This document shows, piece after piece, positions 3,514 to 26,652 of a stretch of DNA of 33,104 nucleotides; positions within the stretch are counted from its first letter, which is position 1; each line of letters starts with the position of its first letter. The DNA is from a virus. Its lineage: Duplodnaviria > Caudoviricetes. The position numbers and the translations under genes were made by a program. The notes beneath the pieces were generated by a model that did not search any database, was not told the origin of the DNA, and saw only the letters and a list, made by a program, of their open reading frames with translations. The stretch spans positions 1-33,104 of IMG/VR virus record IMGVR_UViG_3300005077_000102. The stretch is one strand, 5' to 3'.

Positions 3514-3818
3514 CCTGCAACCTCGTCGGGGCTCAAACCGAAGAAGTTGTTGACGGTGGCCGCCGCGAGTGCAAGGCTGTTGCACATGGCCGAGTGCGTG
3601 CCGTGCATCGGGTGCGTAGAATCGTGGAGGCAATTGAAGTGCCAGCCACGCGGCGGCCGCACTTCGACCGGGGCGCATTCAATGCCGGAGGCGAGCACGG
3701 GGCAAAGCGCCCCGAAGATGTAGAGCTTGGCGATCAGGAACTCTCCACGGCCCGCGTATTCGTTTATCTCGGCCTTGGTGGGGGCAACGAGCTCGCCCGG
3801 CTTGTACTTGCTGTTCAC
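3510..3818 (-). CDS. hypothetical protein
   Basis: 102 aa, GTGA overlap with upstream gene. Confidence 0.55.
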   Translation of the reverse strand: MNSKYKPGELVAPTKAEINEYAGRGEFLIAKLYIFGALCPVLASGIECAPVEVRPPRGWHFNCLHDSTHPMHGTHSAMCNSLALAAATVNNFFGLSPDEVAG

Positions 3819-4147
3819 GCGGCACCCCCTTCCGAAGTACGAATCGTGGGCGGGAGCTTGACCAGCCGGAACCGGTAGGGCCGATCCCGTAGGTCGAGCC
3901 CCGTTACGATCAGGCCCCGGAAGTACACGCCGCCACGCTCGAAGGCGAAGTCTTCCGGCGCACCGACCACGACATCGTTATCGGCGATGACAACCGAGCA
4001 CAGGCGGCCGGTGTGGAGGAGCCACCCGAGGAGTACACCCTTGCCCTTCGCGTCCCGCCAGCGGGCAAGCTCCTTTTCGGTCGGCCGGAGGAGCACGGAG
4101 CTACGGATGCACTTTCGCGGGCTGTGGTAGATGGTTGTAGTCGGCAT
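3815..4147 (-). CDS. hypothetical protein
   Basis: 110 aa; AAAGGA RBS. Confidence 0.65.
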   Translation of the reverse strand: MPTTTIYHSPRKCIRSSVLLRPTEKELARWRDAKGKGVLLGWLLHTGRLCSVVIADNDVVVGAPEDFAFERGGVYFRGLIVTGLDLRDRPYRFRLVKLPPTIRTSEGGAA

Positions 4148-4159
4148 CGGTCTTTCCTT

Positions 4160-4687
4160 TCAGCGAATCGCTTTGCGGGTTTGGGTCAGGTCGATTCCAT
4201 TGGCAAGGGCCCGGACGCGAGCACGCCGGGCTTGGTCGGCCCGGCGGGCTTCCTCTGGAGATTCCGTGGGGCTGTCATCGGGGTAGATTCGTTGCCGGGC
4301 GATGTAGGCATCGTAGAGTTCATCGACGGCCGCCGCGAGGGCCCGGCGGTGCACTTCGAAGAGGAAGGTAATCTCTTCGCGCTGGGGCACGGTGACATCG
4401 AGCCCGAATACCGCCTGCCCCTTCCTTTTCCAATGGTGGTGGGGAAACCCGGCGGCCCCGAATACTTGGTACGCGATCTGGTTCAGCAGCTTGTATTCGA
4501 GCTTGTTCCGGTAGCTCCAGAAGTACCGCTCGGTCGGTAGTTCGGCGCTTTCAATATCGGCAACGGTCAACCCGCTTGCCGCGAGCCCCCGCTCGATTGC
4601 GGCCCAAGCGGCCGCCGCTTCCGACTTTGTAGCACCGGCATCCCGGGCGAGTGCAAGGAGCTTCAGTAGTCTCGGATGGGCGTTCAT
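4160..4687 (-). CDS. DUF2786-domain protein
   Basis: N-terminal LLKLLALARD.GA..SEAAAA...I..L...GL pattern; ATG 4687 behind GGGAG. Confidence 0.7.
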   Translation of the reverse strand: MNAHPRLLKLLALARDAGATKSEAAAAWAAIERGLAASGLTVADIESAELPTERYFWSYRNKLEYKLLNQIAYQVFGAAGFPHHHWKRKGQAVFGLDVTVPQREEITFLFEVHRRALAAAVDELYDAYIARQRIYPDDSPTESPEEARRADQARRARVRALANGIDLTQTRKAIR

Positions 4688-4923
4688 CGGACGGCTCCCC
4701 CCGCATCGGGGTACTTGGCCCGCAGAGATTCGAGGAGCGCGGCGGCCCGGTCGAGTACCTCCTCGGTTGCCGACAGGTGCATTCGCCGGAGCCAGCGAAT
4801 CGCATCCCGAGCGATGGGATCGAGCTCGCGGAAGGGTTCGAGAGAATCGGCGAGCGACCGGGCCCGACGGGCGTTGTACTTGGTCGGCCGAAACCCGGCC
4901 GGGGTTGGGTTTGCGTACTGCAT
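4684..4923 (-). CDS. hypothetical protein
   Basis: ATG 4923 behind GGGGGAG; ATGA overlap with downstream gene. Confidence 0.6.
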   Translation of the reverse strand: MQYANPTPAGFRPTKYNARRARSLADSLEPFRELDPIARDAIRWLRRMHLSATEEVLDRAAALLESLRAKYPDAGGAVR

Positions 4924-18882: not shown

Positions 18883-20163
18883 ATGTCAAAGCCTCTAAGC
18901 GCATTCGTCATCTCCGGCAACGCCCGGGTGAGCCCCCTTCAGAAGAAGGCCGTTGTACTTGCGAAGGAAAGCAAGCGGGTTGACGCGGAGGGCCGTCAGA
19001 CTTCAAGGTGGGTGCCCCAGCCCGTCTCGTTCACGGAGCTCGCCAGACTCTGGAACCCGTGGCACACCCGTTGCGTCCGCGTGAAGGCCGACACCTCCGT
19101 GGGGCTTGGCTGGCAAACCTCGCCGGACGATTCTACCCCCGTGCAGCTGCCGGGCAACAGACTCGGCGAATCGGCGCAGTTCGTCTTGAATCAGGCGGCC
19201 ACCGATTTGGAGGACACCGGGAACGCATACCTTGAACTCGTCAGGGCGAGGGGGGGGCTTCTCGGGGAAATGTACTGGCTCCCCTCGGGCCAGATGGAGC
19301 TCTCCTCCGACCGGGAGTTCGCCCGTCAGGTCGCCCCGGGCGCGGCCAACAAGCACCCGGAATGGCCTCTGTTCCGAACCGTCTGGCCCAAGGGCGCGGA
19401 GCGTTGCGTACTCCACATCAAGCTGCCCGGCACATGGAGTACCTACTACGGTGAGCCGGACTGGCTCGGCTGCATCGAGGAGGTGATGCTGGCCGATTCG
19501 GCCGCCACATTCCAGCGCAAGATGTTCGACAACAACAACATCCCCGCGAGTATCGTACTGCTTCGCGGCATGAGCGACATCCCCTCCGACGAGGAGGATC
19601 AGGACACCGGGGGCAACGCACTCGGCGATCCGCTCGATGTAGTGCAGCGGTTCCTTACCACGAACTTCGGCGGCGTGGCGAACTCGGGCAAGAGCCTCGT
19701 GCTCGACTCGCCGAACCCGGAGTCTGGAATCACCATCGAGCGGCTTCAGGGGCACCTCGACACCGTGAAGCCGATTACCGAGCTGCTGGCCGCCACACGC
19801 GACGGCATCATCAGCGGGCACGGAGTACCGCCCCGGCTGGTGGGTGTAGTCACGGCGGGGCAGCTTGGCGGCGGCGGCGAGGCCGAATCCCAGCTGCGGA
19901 TTTTCCGCGACCTCCACATCCGGCCCCGCCAGCGGCTCTACGCCGAGGCGCTCGCCCCCGTGCTACCGCTTCTGCCCGGCTCCCCCAAGTCGATTCACTT
20001 CATCGGACTCGACATTGACGAGTACACCACCACGGCTCCAACCGCACCGCAGCCCAACCCGGGCGATTCCCCGGCGATGTCGGTCGCCGCGAGCCGGGGC
20101 GCGGCGGGCAGACTCGAAAAGGCCCTCGCAGGTCTGGAGGGGGCGCTCCGTGATTCCCGCTGA
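18883..20163 (+). CDS. portal protein (PBSX/P2-Q-like family)
   Basis: D.EDTGNAYLELVR, YYGEPDW, F.NN..P, I...HGVPP.L.G motifs; GAGGAG RBS. Confidence 0.9.
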   Translation: MSKPLSAFVISGNARVSPLQKKAVVLAKESKRVDAEGRQTSRWVPQPVSFTELARLWNPWHTRCVRVKADTSVGLGWQTSPDDSTPVQLPGNRLGESAQFVLNQAATDLEDTGNAYLELVRARGGLLGEMYWLPSGQMELSSDREFARQVAPGAANKHPEWPLFRTVWPKGAERCVLHIKLPGTWSTYYGEPDWLGCIEEVMLADSAATFQRKMFDNNNIPASIVLLRGMSDIPSDEEDQDTGGNALGDPLDVVQRFLTTNFGGVANSGKSLVLDSPNPESGITIERLQGHLDTVKPITELLAATRDGIISGHGVPPRLVGVVTAGQLGGGGEAESQLRIFRDLHIRPRQRLYAEALAPVLPLLPGSPKSIHFIGLDIDEYTTTAPTAPQPNPGDSPAMSVAASRGAAGRLEKALAGLEGALRDSR

Positions 20164-21049
20164 AAGAGTGCGCCTGCTCAACCTGCACGGTGCGGCGGGC
20201 AGAATGCTGGCGGTCTTGAAGGCGAAGCCGCGAGCCTACTACGACCGGATGGTTGACCGAATCGTGGAGTTCCTTCTCGACGAGGAGTCGACCGTGCTCG
20301 CCCCACGGGTGCGAAGGATTCTCGAACGGCTTGACGAGGGGGAGCCGACTCTTGCCCGGGAACTCGAACTCGCCATCAACTCCCTGCGCGCCGAAATGCC
20401 CCGCAGGGCGGCGAAGATGCTTGAGGACAGAATCGCGCTGACCTACATCGCCGGTGCGGTCGATGTGCAACCGGGCAACTACGCCTTCAACGAGGTTGAC
20501 GAGCGGGCCCTCGATTGGCTGGAAAGCGACTCGTTGTACTGGGTCGGGAAGCACTACGGCGAGAAGTTCGGGAAGAAGGTGATCCAAACGATGGCCCCCG
20601 CGTTCGCCGACGGGGCCCCGGTCGAGGTACTCGCCCCGATGCTGCGGGAGGCGTTCGCCGACGAGGTGACGCGGGGAGAAAGCTACTGGAAGCTATTCGC
20701 GAACTCCGTGGTGACCCGAACCCGCTCGTTCGGCATCACCGCGAATCTGGAGCGGATCGGGGCCAAGTACGGTGTGATCGAGGCCCTGATAGATGACACC
20801 ACCACCGACATCTGCCGGGGGCTTGACGGCAAGCTGGTTCTGGTGGAGAACATGGTGAATCTCCGGGGCGCGTTGATCTCGGCGAAGTCTCCCGAAGAAG
20901 TGCGCGAACTGCACCCTTGGGTGAGCAACGGCCCCGATGCCGAAGCGGTTGTGGCCTCCACGGAGGCGCTTGGATTCGTACCGAGCCAGTACTCGTTTCC
21001 TCCCTACCACGCGAATTGCCGCACCACCGTAGTCTACTTCGGAGAGTAG
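20150..21049 (+). CDS. minor head morphogenesis protein (SPP1 gp7/MuF-like)
   Basis: D..TT.IC..LDGK and PPYHANCRT motifs; GTG 20150 behind GGAGG. Confidence 0.85.
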   Translation: MIPAERVRLLNLHGAAGRMLAVLKAKPRAYYDRMVDRIVEFLLDEESTVLAPRVRRILERLDEGEPTLARELELAINSLRAEMPRRAAKMLEDRIALTYIAGAVDVQPGNYAFNEVDERALDWLESDSLYWVGKHYGEKFGKKVIQTMAPAFADGAPVEVLAPMLREAFADEVTRGESYWKLFANSVVTRTRSFGITANLERIGAKYGVIEALIDDTTTDICRGLDGKLVLVENMVNLRGALISAKSPEEVRELHPWVSNGPDAEAVVASTEALGFVPSQYSFPPYHANCRTTVVYFGE

Positions 21050-21050
21050 G

Positions 21051-22406
21051 TCAGGTCACGACGGCCGCACGGGTCGGGCGAGCCGTCGGCAGCATTCGGG
21101 CCAGAATCGCCATCGAAAGCGCATCCCCGTCATCGGGCGACCGGCCGAGCCTGCGCTTGATGTCCTTCTTGTGCTCCACCTCAACGCGCCGTTCGCTGCC
21201 GATTCGGACTCTCGGCGATGTCAGGTCTTCGGCAAGCCGGTAGTCTCCCTGAGGGAGCGCGAGGTTGCCCGACTTCAGGGCCTCGCGGAGATGCCACCAG
21301 CCCTGATCCCGGAGGTTGCGGTACTCCAGCTTCTTGCCGTCGAATACCGCCTTGCCGCCGCCCTTGAACCTGACTACCCGGCGAACCCCGCGCCCCCGGC
21401 CCCGCCGGGCTACGATGGTCGCCACGCCGCTGCCGATTCCGGTTGCGTCAACGACTACGGAGTCGCAGGAGCGGTTGAGTTCGATGAACCTCAGAATCGC
21501 CTCGGCCACCTCCTCCTCGTCGGCCCCGTGGAGTCTCGCGACCAATTCGGCCTCGGCACGCTTCCCGGCCCATCGAACCCACCAGAGCGCGGAGTTGTCA
21601 TCCCCCTCAAACGCGATGTCGGCCGCAATCCATTCGTCGGTAGTCGAGCCCGGTGGCACCGGTTCCGCACTCTCCTGCGCGTCCTTCACCCATTGGTACG
21701 GGATCAACCGGGCGGGGTCTTCGGCCGCAGTCCACATCCCCCTCAAGTACCTGTCCTGCTCGTCGGGGGTAAGAATCTCCCTCATGTCCGCGAGGTAGGC
21801 GCTGCTCAAGTGCGGGTTGTCGCCGGGAAGGGCCGGGATGAAGGCCCAGCCACGGGGGAGAGTCGAGTTCAGCCACCGGTCGTAGAAGAGCTCCTTCACC
21901 CACCCGATCTCGGGGTTGCAAGTGCAGAGAATCCCGCCCCGGGGGCGCACTCCATCGGATGTTACCCACCTGTCCTTCCGCTCCGACGCGACGGAGAGCA
22001 CCCGCCGCTGCATCTGCGTAACCTCCTCAAGCCCGATGGTGGAGACTTCGAGACTCTTGAGCTCGTCAAGCAGCGGGTCGCGGCCGGTGTCCGCGCCGAG
22101 GAACAGAATCTCCGAGCGGTTGTGGAAGGTGACCACCAGCTGCTGCTTGTTGAAGTCGGCGATGAGCTCCGGGGGGCAGAGTTTCATGAAGGTGGTGAGA
22201 GTCGTGCGGACGATTGCGGTTCGAGTCTTGCGGACGAGAGCGATTCGGTTCCCGGCGGTTTCCGCGCTGCGCTGAATCGCCTCGGCGCAGAGCCAGTAAG
22301 TCTTGCCGCCCCCCATCGCGCCACCGTAGAGCTTGATGGTAGCGGGGTGCCGGTGCGCTTCGGCTTGCTTCGTAGTCGGGATGTAGCCCCACTCAATCCT
22401 CTTCAC
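21051..22406 (-). CDS. terL: terminase large subunit
   Basis: Walker A GGAMGGGKT, Walker B IGLEE, CNP, nuclease ADIA..GDD and SPDDGDAL. Confidence 0.93.
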   Translation of the reverse strand: MKRIEWGYIPTTKQAEAHRHPATIKLYGGAMGGGKTYWLCAEAIQRSAETAGNRIALVRKTRTAIVRTTLTTFMKLCPPELIADFNKQQLVVTFHNRSEILFLGADTGRDPLLDELKSLEVSTIGLEEVTQMQRRVLSVASERKDRWVTSDGVRPRGGILCTCNPEIGWVKELFYDRWLNSTLPRGWAFIPALPGDNPHLSSAYLADMREILTPDEQDRYLRGMWTAAEDPARLIPYQWVKDAQESAEPVPPGSTTDEWIAADIAFEGDDNSALWWVRWAGKRAEAELVARLHGADEEEVAEAILRFIELNRSCDSVVVDATGIGSGVATIVARRGRGRGVRRVVRFKGGGKAVFDGKKLEYRNLRDQGWWHLREALKSGNLALPQGDYRLAEDLTSPRVRIGSERRVEVEHKKDIKRRLGRSPDDGDALSMAILARMLPTARPTRAAVVT

Positions 22407-22857
22407 CGGCCTCCTCCACGAACTCGGCCAACTCCGGCGGTTGCTGCTGCGGGATCATGGAGTACAAGTGAATCGTCGGCGGGCCGCCGTCTCCGGCCCC
22501 CTCGCGCATCCCGGCCATGTTGGCCGCGACGAACTTCAAGAGCCCCGGGTCGCCACCGGGGTAAGTACCATCGGGGCTCCGGGGGCCGAGCGCTTTTCGG
22601 AGCACGGTCGCCTTGATGATGGCCCGCAGATTCGCCCGTGCATGGGCAACCCGTCCAGAAAACTCCTCGTCCTTCTTGAGCCATTCGTAGACGGACGAGC
22701 GGGAAACCCCGGCAAGGTCGGCGGCCTCTTCGAGCGAGTGGTCGTATGCACCGATTGCGCGGATGATGGTGTCCTTGGCCTCGTCCGTCATCTTCAGCGG
22801 GCGGCCGTGCTTGCGCTTCTGCGAGGCCCTTTTCGACGGTGAGCTACGGGGTGCCAC
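22393..22857 (-). CDS. terS: terminase small subunit (HTH)
   Basis: GRP.K..., AADLAGVSRSSVYEW HTH; overlaps terL start; GTG behind GGAGG. Confidence 0.8.
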   Translation of the reverse strand: MAPRSSPSKRASQKRKHGRPLKMTDEAKDTIIRAIGAYDHSLEEAADLAGVSRSSVYEWLKKDEEFSGRVAHARANLRAIIKATVLRKALGPRSPDGTYPGGDPGLLKFVAANMAGMREGAGDGGPPTIHLYSMIPQQQPPELAEFVEEAGEED

Positions 22858-22859
22858 GA

Positions 22860-23501
22860 CTACGCGCCTCCGGCGGGGGCCGGTAGCATGAGCAGGTCGG
22901 GCCGGTGCAGGGGCGGTACTCCGAACGCGGGCTCCCATGTGGCGAGCCGCTGGCTCTGCCGGACTCCGGGCCGGGGCCCCTTCTCGGCGAACTCCAGCAG
23001 CACTCCGGAAAGCAGTTCGAGTCCGAGCGGGAGGAGCTCGCGCCTCCACAGGGTAGTCGGGTCATCGTCGGGCCGGATGAATACATGGCGCTGCGCGAGC
23101 ACGGGGCCGCAATCGACTCCGTTGGTCAGCCAGTACACCGTCCCCCCGGTGATCCGCTCCCGGTTGTGAATCGCCCAGCGAATCGCGTCCCTTCCACGGT
23201 GAATCGGAAGGAGGCTCGGGTGGTAGCCGATGGCCCCGTAGTTCGCCCGGTGCCGGGTCTTCTCGCTGATGAAGTCGTGGGAGTGCGCGGCGACGATGAG
23301 GTCTGTTCCATGTGGAACATTCCGGGCCCGTAGAGTACCGGCCGGGATCAGCGGCACCCCCTTCTGGCTCGCGTAGATTGCGAGCTTGTCCTCCCCGGCA
23401 ATCGGTGCGCTCGCGGCGACCACCGCGATTCCGGGAAGGCCGAGCATCATTTCGAGCACGGCCCTGCCGAAGTACTTTTGTCCGGCGAGCAGAACATTCA
23501 T
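22860..23501 (-). CDS. stand-alone formyltransferase (10-formyl-THF-binding core)
   Basis: YHPSLLPIHRG, GGTVYW...VDCGP motifs; 213 aa, no Fmt C-terminal domain. Confidence 0.88.
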   Translation of the reverse strand: MNVLLAGQKYFGRAVLEMMLGLPGIAVVAASAPIAGEDKLAIYASQKGVPLIPAGTLRARNVPHGTDLIVAAHSHDFISEKTRHRANYGAIGYHPSLLPIHRGRDAIRWAIHNRERITGGTVYWLTNGVDCGPVLAQRHVFIRPDDDPTTLWRRELLPLGLELLSGVLLEFAEKGPRPGVRQSQRLATWEPAFGVPPLHRPDLLMLPAPAGGA

Positions 23502-24622
23502 CGGTTTGCCGTCTCTCTTGTCATCTTGAACCCCTGCACGGCCCGGTGGTGCCCGCCGAACCCGCCCATCTTCGTGCCGAGCGAGCGGCTGAGAGTCGCC
23601 GATCCCCGGCCCTTGTGCTTCCCGGACACCGCCTGACTGACCTGAACCCACCGCTTGCTCCGGCGAAGTGCAGAGCACAGCCCGGGGTGCGAGGTGTGGA
23701 AGTAGCACCGCCAGACTCTCTCGTGGAACTGGTTAACCGGCGTGAACTGCATCGCGGCCACCGTGTCGAGGAACCGAGTTCCGACTCCGGCCCCCTGCCA
23801 CTCCGGCATCACCACCATCCGGCAGAGTCTCATGCCCCCCTGCATCAGCCAAGGGGCCGAAGCGATGTGGCAGACGAGTTCGCCCTCCACGAACCCGACG
23901 AAGTACCGTGCCGCCACCATCGCGGGGAGCTTCAGATAATGATGCGGCTCAAAGAGTTTCCAGTACGAGCTGTCCGTCTGGAGAATCTCGAGCTCAAACT
24001 TTGGCCTTCGCCAAAGAGACCCCCTCGCCAGATCACCCGTCCGGGTATCGAATACCCAGTCGGGCTCCAGCCAATCGAGCACATCGTAGTGGCATGAGAG
24101 CAGCACGGCCCTCCCGTTGCCCCGCTTCCACGCCTTGCCGAATGCGGCCGCGCCGATCTTCGCGATCTGGCGGTCTACAACGGAGGTGAACTCGTCGATG
24201 ATTACCCGGTCGCGGCCCTCCGCGATGATTCGCGCCAGCCCGGCGCGGAATCGCTCCCCGTTGGAAAGCGCATGGTAGGGCCTGAGCCACGCGGGCACCG
24301 ATCCGAGCCCGACGGCCGAGAGTGCGCCGGTAACGGTGTCGAACTCCCCGCCGGGTGCAATCGCTTCCACGATGGGCTTGTCCTCCGGCCAGCCCTCGCC
24401 GCCATCGTAGATTCCCACATCGGGCCAGATTGCGCGGCCGATGCTGGTCTTGCCGGAACCGCTTGGGCCGACCACGACTCCGAGTTTCCAGCCCCCGTCC
24501 TCGATGGGCAGCTCCGCGTCGAGGCTGAAGTTCGCGCCGGACTCGCAGTTAAACAGGCTCTTCACCCGGGCGGCCCGGTAGCCGTTGAACTCGCTGCACG
24601 AGTTCCGCACTTCGATCTTCAC
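23498..24622 (-). CDS. ABC-family ATPase fused to GNAT acyltransferase (Mom-like DNA modification candidate)
   Basis: Walker A GPSGSGKT, signature LSNGE, Walker B IIDEF, H-loop SCH; C-terminal RMVVMPEWQGAGVG acyl-CoA motif. Confidence 0.88.
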   Translation of the reverse strand: MKIEVRNSCSEFNGYRAARVKSLFNCESGANFSLDAELPIEDGGWKLGVVVGPSGSGKTSIGRAIWPDVGIYDGGEGWPEDKPIVEAIAPGGEFDTVTGALSAVGLGSVPAWLRPYHALSNGERFRAGLARIIAEGRDRVIIDEFTSVVDRQIAKIGAAAFGKAWKRGNGRAVLLSCHYDVLDWLEPDWVFDTRTGDLARGSLWRRPKFELEILQTDSSYWKLFEPHHYLKLPAMVAARYFVGFVEGELVCHIASAPWLMQGGMRLCRMVVMPEWQGAGVGTRFLDTVAAMQFTPVNQFHERVWRCYFHTSHPGLCSALRRSKRWVQVSQAVSGKHKGRGSATLSRSLGTKMGGFGGHHRAVQGFKMTRETANR

Positions 24623-24630
24623 GGGTCACC

Positions 24631-25203
24631 TCAGTTGACGAGCACCTTGACGGTGTAGCCCTGCTCAAGAAGCGCATCGTACACCTCGCTCTGGTGGGAC
24701 TCGTTCTCGCACTCCACCAGAACCGCGTAGTGCTCCTTGTAGTTGATTTCCGGTTCAGCCCCCTCGCCGTCGCCAAGCGGGCCCTTCGGCAGGTCGCCGG
24801 GCGCGAACCCGAGCAGGCCCGGATCGACCCCGGCCGCGCCGAGCTCTTCGAGCTCAAGCGACAAGAGCTCCGAATCCCACCCTGCGAGATTCGCAAGCTG
24901 GTTGTCGGCCAGCGTGTAGGCCCGCGCCTGCGTTTCGGTCAAGTGCGAAAGGTAGATGCACGGCACCTCCTCGATCCCGAGTTTCCGGGCCGCGAGCACG
25001 CGGCCGTGCCCGGCGATGATGGTGTTGTCATCGCGGAGCAGAATCGGGTTGTTGAAGCCGAACTCGCGAATGCTTGCCGCGATCTTGGCGACTTGCTCGT
25101 CCGAGTGCGTCCTCGCGTTCCGGGCGTAGGGAATCAACGAGTCCACCCGAACCCGCACGATGTGATCGGCCTCTCCCGGGGCCGCCGTCTTCTTGCCAGC
25201 CAT
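24631..25203 (-). CDS. ParB/Srx N-terminal domain protein
   Basis: LIPYARNARTH..QV..IA.SI.EFGF.NPI..IIAGHGR..AA..LG..ADN; short C-terminal YAVLVEC..E..Q..Y..L...GY domain. Confidence 0.9.
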   Translation of the reverse strand: MAGKKTAAPGEADHIVRVRVDSLIPYARNARTHSDEQVAKIAASIREFGFNNPILLRDDNTIIAGHGRVLAARKLGIEEVPCIYLSHLTETQARAYTLADNQLANLAGWDSELLSLELEELGAAGVDPGLLGFAPGDLPKGPLGDGEGAEPEINYKEHYAVLVECENESHQSEVYDALLEQGYTVKVLVN

Positions 25204-25405: not shown

Positions 25406-25705
25406 CTACCGAGTCGCGACTCGGGCGCTCTCGACCGTCAGCCGGGCAAGTTCGCTCCGGGCCTCCTCAAGCCGTCTGGTGGCGGCCCGCTCCTCGCCCC
25501 GTGCGATTCCAATGGCCCAACCGTAGGCCTTTTCGGAAGTCTCGAAGTACCTGTGGCCCGATGTGATCTTGAGCTCGCGGGTTGTGTCGCCCCCCGGCCC
25601 CGTCACCGTCACCGTCAACTCGGTTTCGTGCACTACATCGCAGGGGAGCACGAGCACGCTGACCCCGAACTTCCCACGAATAACCTTCCACCACCGTTTC
25701 GTCAT
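25406..25705 (-). CDS. hypothetical phage protein
   Basis: ATGA overlap with upstream gene; GGAGG RBS. Confidence 0.65.
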   Translation of the reverse strand: MTKRWWKVIRGKFGVSVLVLPCDVVHETELTVTVTGPGGDTTRELKITSGHRYFETSEKAYGWAIGIARGEERAATRRLEEARSELARLTVESARVATR

Positions 25706-26652
25706 TCGAGCTCCTCCGGTAGCATCGCGGCCTCGGGGTACTCCTCGATGATCCTGCCGTCGAGGAGTCTGCCGTTGTGCCGTTTCCCCCACCCAAGCCA
25801 CCTGTTGCCCCGTGCGTCAACCGTAATCACGGGCCGCATCGCGAACTGCCGCCTTTTTTCCCCGTGGTCGGGCAGCGTAGTCTGGAACTCCGGCAGCCAC
25901 TCGCCCCATTGCTTGAAGAGTACGGGCACCCCGGCGGCCTTGCATTGCGAAACGATTCCGCGCACCCAATCGGCCTCGGTCGGCCGGGCGCACCGGCCGC
26001 TTTCACCCCCGACGATTACCCAATCGATCCCCGGGATGGTGCCGATTCCCTTCGCGGCCCTCCGCGTGAAGTGCCCCGAGAGGTCGAGCGGGCCGAGAAG
26101 CGGCTCGGCCGAAATGAACCGAGTCTCGGCATCGAACAGCTTGAGCCACCCGATCCGCTCCGCGAGCCGCTCCTGATTCTCCACGCTCACGCCGAAGAGC
26201 AGATTCGGAAGCGGCAGCTGCACGCTGTCGGCCATTGCCGCGAGTTCCGGGTTTGTGCTTGCAATCCCCGACTTGGCCGATTGCATCCGGGTCAACCAGT
26301 CCGCGAATCGAACCGCGAGGTCGGGCCGCTTGGTGAGCACGAGGAACTTGTGCTGCGGGGCCCGGGCGAAAACCGAGAAAACTTCAAGGATCGATGTGAG
26401 CTCGTGCTGCTCGTGGAACAGGTCGCTCATCGAGCAAACGAATATCCTTCGGGGCCTTTTCCAGCGAATAGGCAGGCCGATCCTGTTCGGATGAAAAGTC
26501 GGCGCGAACGGGGAGAGTGCGGGGTAACCCACCCTCCCCGCAAGCCGCACCGAATCCCGCTTCGCGTAGCAGTTCGCGCACCCCTCGCTCACCTTGCTGC
26601 AACCGGTGAAGGGATTCCACGATTCGGTTGCCCATTCGATCTTCGTCGGCAT
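25702..26652 (-). CDS. phage Gp37/Gp68 family (DUF5131) protein, radical-SAM-like
   Basis: TKIEW..WNP.TGC.KVS.GC.NCYA, IFVCSMSDLFH, LTKRP, S.EPLL, WVIVGGESG, FKQWG. Confidence 0.9.
   Translation of the reverse strand: MPTKIEWATESWNPFTGCSKVSEGCANCYAKRDSVRLAGRVGYPALSPFAPTFHPNRIGLPIRWKRPRRIFVCSMSDLFHEQHELTSILEVFSVFARAPQHKFLVLTKRPDLAVRFADWLTRMQSAKSGIASTNPELAAMADSVQLPLPNLLFGVSVENQERLAERIGWLKLFDAETRFISAEPLLGPLDLSGHFTRRAAKGIGTIPGIDWVIVGGESGRCARPTEADWVRGIVSQCKAAGVPVLFKQWGEWLPEFQTTLPDHGEKRRQFAMRPVITVDARGNRWLGWGKRHNGRLLDGRIIEEYPEAAMLPEELE

Follow-up and report, generated by a model that had tools for sequence, protein, structure and literature searches.

A widespread phage cassette that joins an ABC ATPase-acyltransferase fusion to an LctF-type formyltransferase, a candidate system for formylation of phage DNA

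What would an acyltransferase of the GNAT fold, fused to an ABC-type ATPase, do beside a formyltransferase, a ParB-like protein and the terminase genes of a phage? The question is raised by a gene cassette at positions 21,051 to 25,203 of IMG/VR record IMGVR_UViG_3300005077_000102 (Caudoviricetes); the window analysed is the entire virus record (33,104 bases, estimated 42% complete, with tail, head and recombination genes present). A preliminary description of the locus had ParB recruit the two enzymes to make a hypermodified base at packaging time. On balance, we think that the cassette makes formyl-coenzyme A (formyl-CoA) and, with ATP, formylates the phage's own DNA. The formyltransferase would move the formyl group from 10-formyl-tetrahydrofolate (10-formyl-THF) to coenzyme A, and the GNAT domain would transfer it from formyl-CoA to the exocyclic amine of a DNA base; opening or engaging the DNA is the role predicted for the ABC ATPase. 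Adenine N6 would be the most likely site, favoured because adenine-directed enzymes share the com slot described below, with cytosine N4 as the alternative. A small domain, here called X, would be the needed partner of the fusion, and ParB an optional targeting or loading module; where the formyltransferase is lacking, the donor would be an acyl-CoA of the host, for instance acetyl-CoA. The benefit would be partial protection against restriction.

Base acylation by a phage 'GNAT coupled with an ABC ATPase' has already been predicted (Iyer et al. 2021, PMC7824862). The passage concerned there has the same domain pair and the same predicted target, and phage pT24, named in it, matches the window protein at 33% identity; it names no formyltransferase, X domain, donor or product, whereas here the donor would be formyl-CoA. 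The window locus is one copy of this predicted, often-seen system and is not unusual in itself. The passage cites an earlier paper, probably Iyer et al. NAR 2013; that paper and Krishnan 2020 may also cover the formyltransferase. Neither a measured product of the cassette nor a link to LctF, the formyltransferase of the lactacystin cluster, was found in the literature searched (subscription journals and bioRxiv supplements lay outside it), and a comparison paper on Gordonia DR phages has no passage on the cassette genes. The LctF link narrows a vague 'acyl modification' to a specific, testable mechanism, with a formyl-CoA donor and a +28 Da nucleoside product; if true, the natural DNA bases would gain a member, formyl-CoA would serve a GNAT that acts on DNA, and an enzyme of natural-product biosynthesis would have come from phages. 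The most far-reaching version is tentative, and taken whole we doubt it slightly more than we believe it: a very common phage system would use an ATP-driven GNAT, with formyl-CoA as donor, to write N6-formyl-adenine or N4-formyl-cytosine into the DNA of virions, the mark possibly overlooked as labile; cassettes that had lost the formyltransferase would be acetyl versions, and Streptomyces would have taken the donor enzyme from phages for lactacystin.

Composition of the cassette across loci

Loci were sampled as 80 viral loci (the best 80 of 164), 64 genomic loci and four annotated phages. One locus was dropped for having no ABC-GNAT match, counts were not dereplicated, and only loci with enough flank were scored. 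Domain X, detected with a profile built from the same loci in which it was counted, lies directly upstream of ABC-GNAT in 130/143 loci. A formyltransferase is found downstream of ABC-GNAT in 96/134, and ParB within 2.5 kb upstream in 59/126. All of ParB-X, ABC-GNAT and formyltransferase are present at 31/114 loci; X, ABC-GNAT and formyltransferase occur without ParB at 49/114. Of the two clades in a tree of 74 ABC-GNATs, only one has the formyltransferase (45 with and 9 without it among 54 scorable members); in the other it is found in 0/14 scorable members. Because of these locus counts and the clade distribution of the formyltransferase, we conclude that the core is X plus ABC-GNAT and that ParB and formyltransferase are accessory. 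ParB had been described as the essential recruiter and, with ABC-GNAT and the formyltransferase, as part of a fixed unit; the first is not supported, ParB being absent from the 2.5 kb upstream in 67/126 loci, nor is the second, the trio being complete in only 31/114. ParB or terminase as the defining partner was rejected on the same locus counts and on the downstream genes, which disagree with it. No replacement donor enzyme was seen by eye in 29 formyltransferase-less loci, where terS or unrelated open reading frames (ORFs) follow instead.

The cassette is widespread, in thousands of sequence clusters, and the formyltransferase query returned 2,362 proteins at E ≤ 1e-10, cellular relatives included. 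Cultured phages of Gordonia, Pseudomonas, Burkholderia thailandensis and Porphyromonas carry it. On one contig two divergent cassettes stand in tandem, each with its own X (L033:1141-2301 and 3630-4703), and in L146 and in Streptococcus, Lactococcus and Oenococcus phages the ABC and GNAT domains are apparently split into two adjacent genes.

Domain X corresponds to phrog_28816 (E = 4.5e-6). In ParB-less loci it is a stand-alone gene, usually overlapping the ABC-GNAT start. One Gln of X is kept in 86/86 cases and one Cys in 82/86; a PDB search with X gave no informative match and no usable fold or family. X is likely to be an obligate partner of ABC-GNAT. A role of the Cys as formyl-thioester carrier was considered and not adopted, because the residue is kept in 26/26 loci without formyltransferase and absent in some loci with it. 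The label 'acr candidate' given to the stand-alone X gene of Porphyromonas phages (L003:4876-5004) seems doubtful, in view of how constantly X is coupled to ABC-GNAT.

Formyl-CoA as the predicted donor

The window formyltransferase matches Pfam Formyl_trans_N (E = 2.8e-18), and its H94, S96 and D130 are invariant in 52/52 relatives. When a profile of the 52 cassette formyltransferases was compared with the PDB, the FDH N-terminal domain scored highest (146 bits), followed by Fmt (104), ArnA (80), PurN (69) and HypX (52). Assignment to Fmt was rejected (52.8 bits against a cut-off of 201.5, and 213 amino acids against a model of 315, the equivalog including a C-terminal domain), as was assignment to PurN (46.9 bits against the TIGR00639 cut-off of 150.1). 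PMC6802093 describes the FDH N-terminal domain as using a His-Ser-Asp triad to formylate the thiol of phosphopantetheine, and a like synthesis of formyl-CoA is proposed there for HypX. With the hydrolase domain of FDH (ALDH1L1) and HypX's N-terminal domain the cassette enzyme has in common this triad and, by prediction, formyl transfer to a pantetheine thiol; unlike them, it is a stand-alone protein of 213 amino acids, without a carrier or a downstream oxidising or decarbonylating domain.

LctF forms formyl-CoA from 10-formyl-THF and coenzyme A in vitro (PMC11730586, in the part dealing with LctF). Orthologs were recognised by ketosynthase-P450-MbtH context and by match to the lctF primers given in the supplement of that paper: the forward primer was found with ≤3 mismatches in 19/278 loci (exact in 2) and the reverse primer with ≤2 mismatches in 3. 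In a reverse search with the formyltransferase profile, covering the best 80 of at least 597 matches, 25 of the 49 loci without ABC-GNAT were examined, and 13 of these lie behind a P450 gene with ketosynthase or MbtH genes, which is the lctC-D-E-F order. An LctF ortholog is 43% identical to the window formyltransferase (221 columns) and 65% to an Actinokineospora cassette enzyme; across this range of 43-65% identity, LctF belongs to the same subfamily as the cassette enzymes, has the same GYHPSLLP motif and length, and stands apart from Fmt and PurN. LctF feeds the AT domain of a polyketide synthase (PMC11730586, same part), whereas the cassette enzyme has a GNAT as its neighbour, in the late operon of a phage.

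The residue two positions before the catalytic His separates these enzymes from their host paralogs. Position 92 is Gly in 50/52 cassette formyltransferases and never Asn; its equivalent is Gly in 14/14 LctF orthologs and Asn in 10/14 host paralogs (the other 4 without motif match). The motif Gly-Tyr-His-Pro-Ser is thus common to cassette enzymes and LctF orthologs, the 10/14 host paralogs having Asn-x-His. By analogy with LctF and with FDH, which also has no Asn before the His (PMC6802093, passage cited above), the missing Asn may mark thiol acceptors.

In a maximum-likelihood tree of 106 rows the LctF orthologs nest inside the cassette formyltransferases. With 36 selected rows, from which long branches and context-less matches had been removed, the nesting has support 100/97, the lactacystin-cluster enzymes are sister to an Actinokineospora cassette enzyme, and forcing the cassette formyltransferases into one clade was rejected (p-AU 0.023, 36-row set). 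LctF was likely recruited from the phage cassette family, as far as the tree can tell. Lactacystin-type clusters that end in a cassette-family formyltransferase occur in many actinomycete genomes (L214-L276: Streptomyces, Kitasatospora, Embleya). Orphan members of the family occur in other cellular contexts (L204, L211, L212, L216, L221, L226, L242, L249, L251), adjoining SDR, enoyl-CoA hydratase, malate/lactate dehydrogenase or esterase genes, and are apparently several independent escapes from the cassette.

We infer that the window formyltransferase very probably synthesises formyl-CoA. A GNAT requires acyl-CoA, and because of this requirement supply of the GNAT donor is the simplest reading of the formyltransferase. 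In a two-step hypermodification, implied by the preliminary description, the GNAT would add an aminoacyl or other amine-bearing group to the base and the formyltransferase would formylate that group on DNA. DpdN, also a phage PF00551 enzyme, is tied to a formylated DNA nucleoside and proposed to formylate preQ1 in DNA (10.1101/2023.04.13.536721, in the part on DpdN); an optional formyltransferase is what would be expected of a finishing enzyme, and the evidence for a DNA target, given below, serves this route equally. DpdN, unlike the cassette enzyme, depends on the deazaguanine pathway and on an amine as acceptor, and other groups of phage formyltransferases are treated in the same part of that source as having no relation to fdPreQ1; no deazaguanine pathway family was found in the 32 ORFs scanned in the window, a record 42% complete; and the cassette formyltransferase does not have the Asn of host paralogs that formylate amines, and falls together with LctF, which formylates CoA. 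We consider the two-step route distinctly unlikely. The proposal that the formyltransferase itself modifies DNA, adding a second mark, yields to that of a formyl-CoA maker, which the FDH match, the LctF nesting and the motif make the more likely.

DNA as the predicted acceptor

The whole ABC-GNAT protein matches phrog_11143 (unknown function, E = 1e-138), and its two halves match Pfam ABC_tran (E = 2.6e-5) and GNAT (E = 8.5e-4). Walker A K58, Walker B D143-E144, D-loop D150 and H-loop C177-H178 are invariant in 74/74 aligned relatives, as are R268, P273, Q276, G277 and G281 of GNAT motif A, which binds acyl-CoA; the ABC signature LSNGE is kept in the 74 except for its variable N/E. These residues, with the formyltransferase triad (52/52), agree with the earlier statement that the catalytic motifs are intact. 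It had also been noted that no permease stands beside the ABC domain, and none was detected in the 32 window ORFs scanned (record 42% complete) or in 108 neighbour ORFs of 72 loci; annotation as a transporter was rejected, with no permease partner at the window or at the 72 loci. An AlphaFold model (pLDDT, the predicted local distance difference test, of 90.5) has a compact ABC domain followed by a canonical small GNAT domain. Fold matches found with VIA-align reached Z 14.8 for the ABC domain and 15.7 for the GNAT domain, the best for the latter being IAA acetyltransferase (15.7), RimI (14.5) and Naa10 (13.8), with Naa50 among them too. A cluster of mostly chlorophyte proteins (731 amino acids; hit 23 in the ESM Atlas, feature score 0.97 to ABC-GNAT) is a lead to a possible eukaryotic relative.

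Kinship with the DNA-modifying protein Mom of phage Mu, beyond the shared GNAT fold, was not borne out by profile or hhalign. The Mom family (PF25680) was rejected for ABC-GNAT, since none of its 8 Pfam families at E ≤ 0.1 is Mom, and Mom is not among the 25 families listed, of 38 Pfam families, for the 74 members; Mu Mom itself scored 253 bits against the Mom profile. An hhalign comparison of ABC-GNAT with Mu Mom, the template being a single sequence, gave a probability of 0.1, and a viral fold search with ABC-GNAT returned a family member and generic ABC or GNAT matches, with no named Mom in the top 50. For a deeper Mom profile 44 Mom loci were fetched; at 85-100% identity to Mu they were left unused.

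Among 52 downstream ORFs tested (72 non-redundant loci), 23 encode a large terminase, four PHROG families being represented, and another 8 a portal. In Gordonia phage BiggityBass genes 1-4 are ParB, ABC-GNAT, formyltransferase and terminase, the order of the window, and because the same order is seen again in unrelated phages it is beyond chance. Elsewhere tail or baseplate genes lie upstream (9/72 loci, manual count) and some copies are embedded in operons of head or tail genes; the cassette comes after tail-fibre genes, without ParB, in phiE255, in Komp_PAO1_1 and in one Porphyromonas phage, where Mu has com-mom. A Com-type zinc finger is found upstream in 13/31 ParB-less loci and 0/35 ParB-bearing ones (5/5 tested match PF10122). 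Recurrence of the trio beside terminases in other phages, which the preliminary description had proposed as a check, is seen to the extent that terminase or portal genes make up 31/52 downstream ORFs; other copies follow tail genes or com, and an obligate link to packaging is not supported. The common factor of cassette sites is late expression, not terminase.

Com-gated genes at the right-end slot are Mom or non-specific adenine methyltransferases and modify DNA (PMC3299994, passage on these genes). As a control, 301 genomes of one bacterial order were searched for com regardless of the cassette (the seed genome carries it), and 21 com genes were found in 16/301. The gene after com was a D12 adenine methyltransferase in 14 cases, another DNA methyltransferase in 2, the cassette in 3 (one of them the seed genome) and an IS110 transposase in 2. 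Behind com the cassette therefore interchanges with DNA methyltransferases, which points to DNA as its target. Some relatives of the cassette resemble Mu com-mom in being com-gated, late and at the right end; Mom differs in having no ABC ATPase, X or formyltransferase and no sequence match to the cassette GNAT, and the window copy in having ParB and no com. GNAT fold and acyl-CoA use have been proposed for Mom as well (PMC7824862, in the same passage as above). Mom was found in 1/31 cassette-bearing records, a rate that has no background for comparison; one phage record (L322, the record of L024) holds both a Mom-family gene and the cassette.

The ParB domain points the same way. It matches Pfam ParB_N (E = 1.5e-7) and PHROG ParB-like (E = 1e-50), and also the ParB part of the DNA-methyltransferase family phrog_498 (E = 3e-48). 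ParB-terminase loci carry predicted DNA modifiers (PMC4738411), and the window likewise has ParB and a candidate modifier directly upstream of terS/terL. What it shares with the ParB-Tls loci of that paper is ParB before terminase and a ParB domain like those fused to phage DNA methyltransferases; the cargo there is a methylase, here an acyltransferase for which ParB is dispensable. We infer that DNA is probably the acceptor of the acyl group.

TmcA/NAT10 combine an ATPase with a GNAT and make N4-acetylcytidine in RNA. The same logic could apply to the cassette, which would then acylate RNA or tRNA and tune late translation, com gating by itself indicating only toxicity and late timing. The ATPase here, however, is ABC-type, not helicase-like, TmcA/NAT10 are not among the top 50 fold matches of ABC-GNAT (a likeness at the level of the GNAT being still possible), and the slot partners are DNA enzymes; an RNA target seems very unlikely.

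Several observations weigh against formylation of DNA by the cassette. N6-formyl-adenine is hydrolytically labile. By its modelled fold the GNAT is of a generic small type, its top matches acting on small molecules and protein N-termini, with Z-scores that differ by only about 2 units and give no substrate indication; by the comparisons above it is not a Mom-family member, and its fold is silent on substrate. The formyltransferase is dispensable (0/14 in one ABC-GNAT clade, missing in 9/54 of the other), and ABC-GNAT lies upstream in only 31 of its best 80 matches and not in 49. The function of LctF may have shifted after recruitment, and the tested LctF was identified through orthologs only. 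Restriction bears on the question as well. In the window the observed/expected (O/E) ratio of 6-mer palindromes is 0.49 against 0.92 in shuffled sequence, with avoidance in all thirds of the genome (CTAG occurs 0 times, ACGT 5, AATT 8), and the median O/E in 31 cassette loci is 0.75. This persistent avoidance argues against blanket restriction protection, and because the window genome avoids palindromes so strongly any protection is probably partial; Mom, for comparison, modifies only about 15% of adenines (PMC3299994, as above). HindIII profiles verified the assemblies of two Oenococcus phages (PMC7838156, passage on assembly), and both carry a distant split ABC-GNAT homolog. Lastly, in BcepMu and three relatives a reverse-strand acyltransferase (Acyl_transf_3 in BcepMu) occupies the right-end slot; because of this group, right-end position alone is not mom-specific, and the com control is the stronger argument.

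Some of these points would fit acylation of a protein. With formyl-CoA still the donor, the GNAT would formylate or acetylate the N-terminus or a lysine of a protein of phage or host late in infection, so as to take over the host or mature the virion. RimI, Ard1/Naa10 and Naa50 are among the fold neighbours, RNA polymerase is acetylated by phage GNATs, Rac for one (PMC7824862, in the part on phage GNATs), some cassette copies lie inside head or tail operons, and palindrome avoidance persists. Such a target would leave com gating, exchange with DNA methyltransferases and the ParB fusion unexplained, and the fold scores, within about 2 units, speak for no substrate; we regard protein acylation as unlikely. 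The Acyl_transf_3-type enzyme carried by sister phages in the same slot would suit acylation of a small molecule or surface glycan (a nucleotide precursor, a defence signal or a receptor sugar), as would the small-molecule enzymes among the top GNAT matches and the sugar N-formyltransferases, which have the same fold as the cassette formyltransferase. FDH, however, outscores the sugar formyltransferases by about 60 bits, no membrane or sugar-nucleotide partner was seen, and the cassette runs in the same direction as late genes and is present in Gordonia phages that are lytic, which makes this route highly improbable.

The window locus and its neighbours

The coordinates of the cassette and adjoining genes are given in Table 1. 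As stated earlier, five genes are co-oriented on the minus strand with gaps of ≤8 nt or overlaps; gene calls and coordinates agree. ParB-X and ABC-GNAT are separated by 8 nt and the formyltransferase and terS by 2 nt; the ABC-GNAT TGA and the formyltransferase ATG overlap as ATGA (23498-23501), and terS and terL overlap by 14 nt. Shine-Dalgarno-like words precede ParB, ABC-GNAT, terS and terL. The GC content at third codon positions (GC3) of all five genes is 0.80-0.85, the same as in the structural genes.

Table 1. Cassette features and adjoining genes, in window coordinates
Feature	Position	Strand	Description
Zinc-ribbon gene, 64 aa (amino acids)	25397-25203	-	Stop overlaps ParB start; weak Pfam Zn_ribbon_NrdR match (E = 0.0015, below cut-off)
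ParB-X gene	25203-24631	-	ParB/Srx-like domain (residues ~13-140) plus domain X; optional cassette part
Domain X	24634..24771	-	C-terminal ~45 aa of ParB protein; separate domain
ABC-GNAT	24622-23498	-	GTG start; ABC-type ATPase (residues 1-205) plus GNAT acyltransferase (residues 209-370); core enzyme
Formyltransferase	23501-22860	-	Predicted 10-formyl-THF-dependent, LctF / FDH-hydrolase type; 213 aa; accessory
terS	GTG 22857 to 22393	-	PHROG terS, E = 3e-9; same-operon neighbour
terL	22406-21051	-	PHROG terL, E = 2e-31; same-operon neighbour

The zinc-ribbon gene is a sixth co-oriented gene of the same operon (GC3 0.82), absent from the preliminary description; it is not Com and is a possible late regulator. 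Two genes upstream of the cassette, in the same direction, is a DUF5131 gene (25702-26652, minus strand; Pfam E = 7.5e-78) with a CxxxCxxC motif. Portal and head-morphogenesis genes (18883-21049) lie on the plus strand, inverted with respect to terL and all other late genes. No inverted repeat was found at both borders of this segment, and the second of its head genes stops 1 base from the terL stop.

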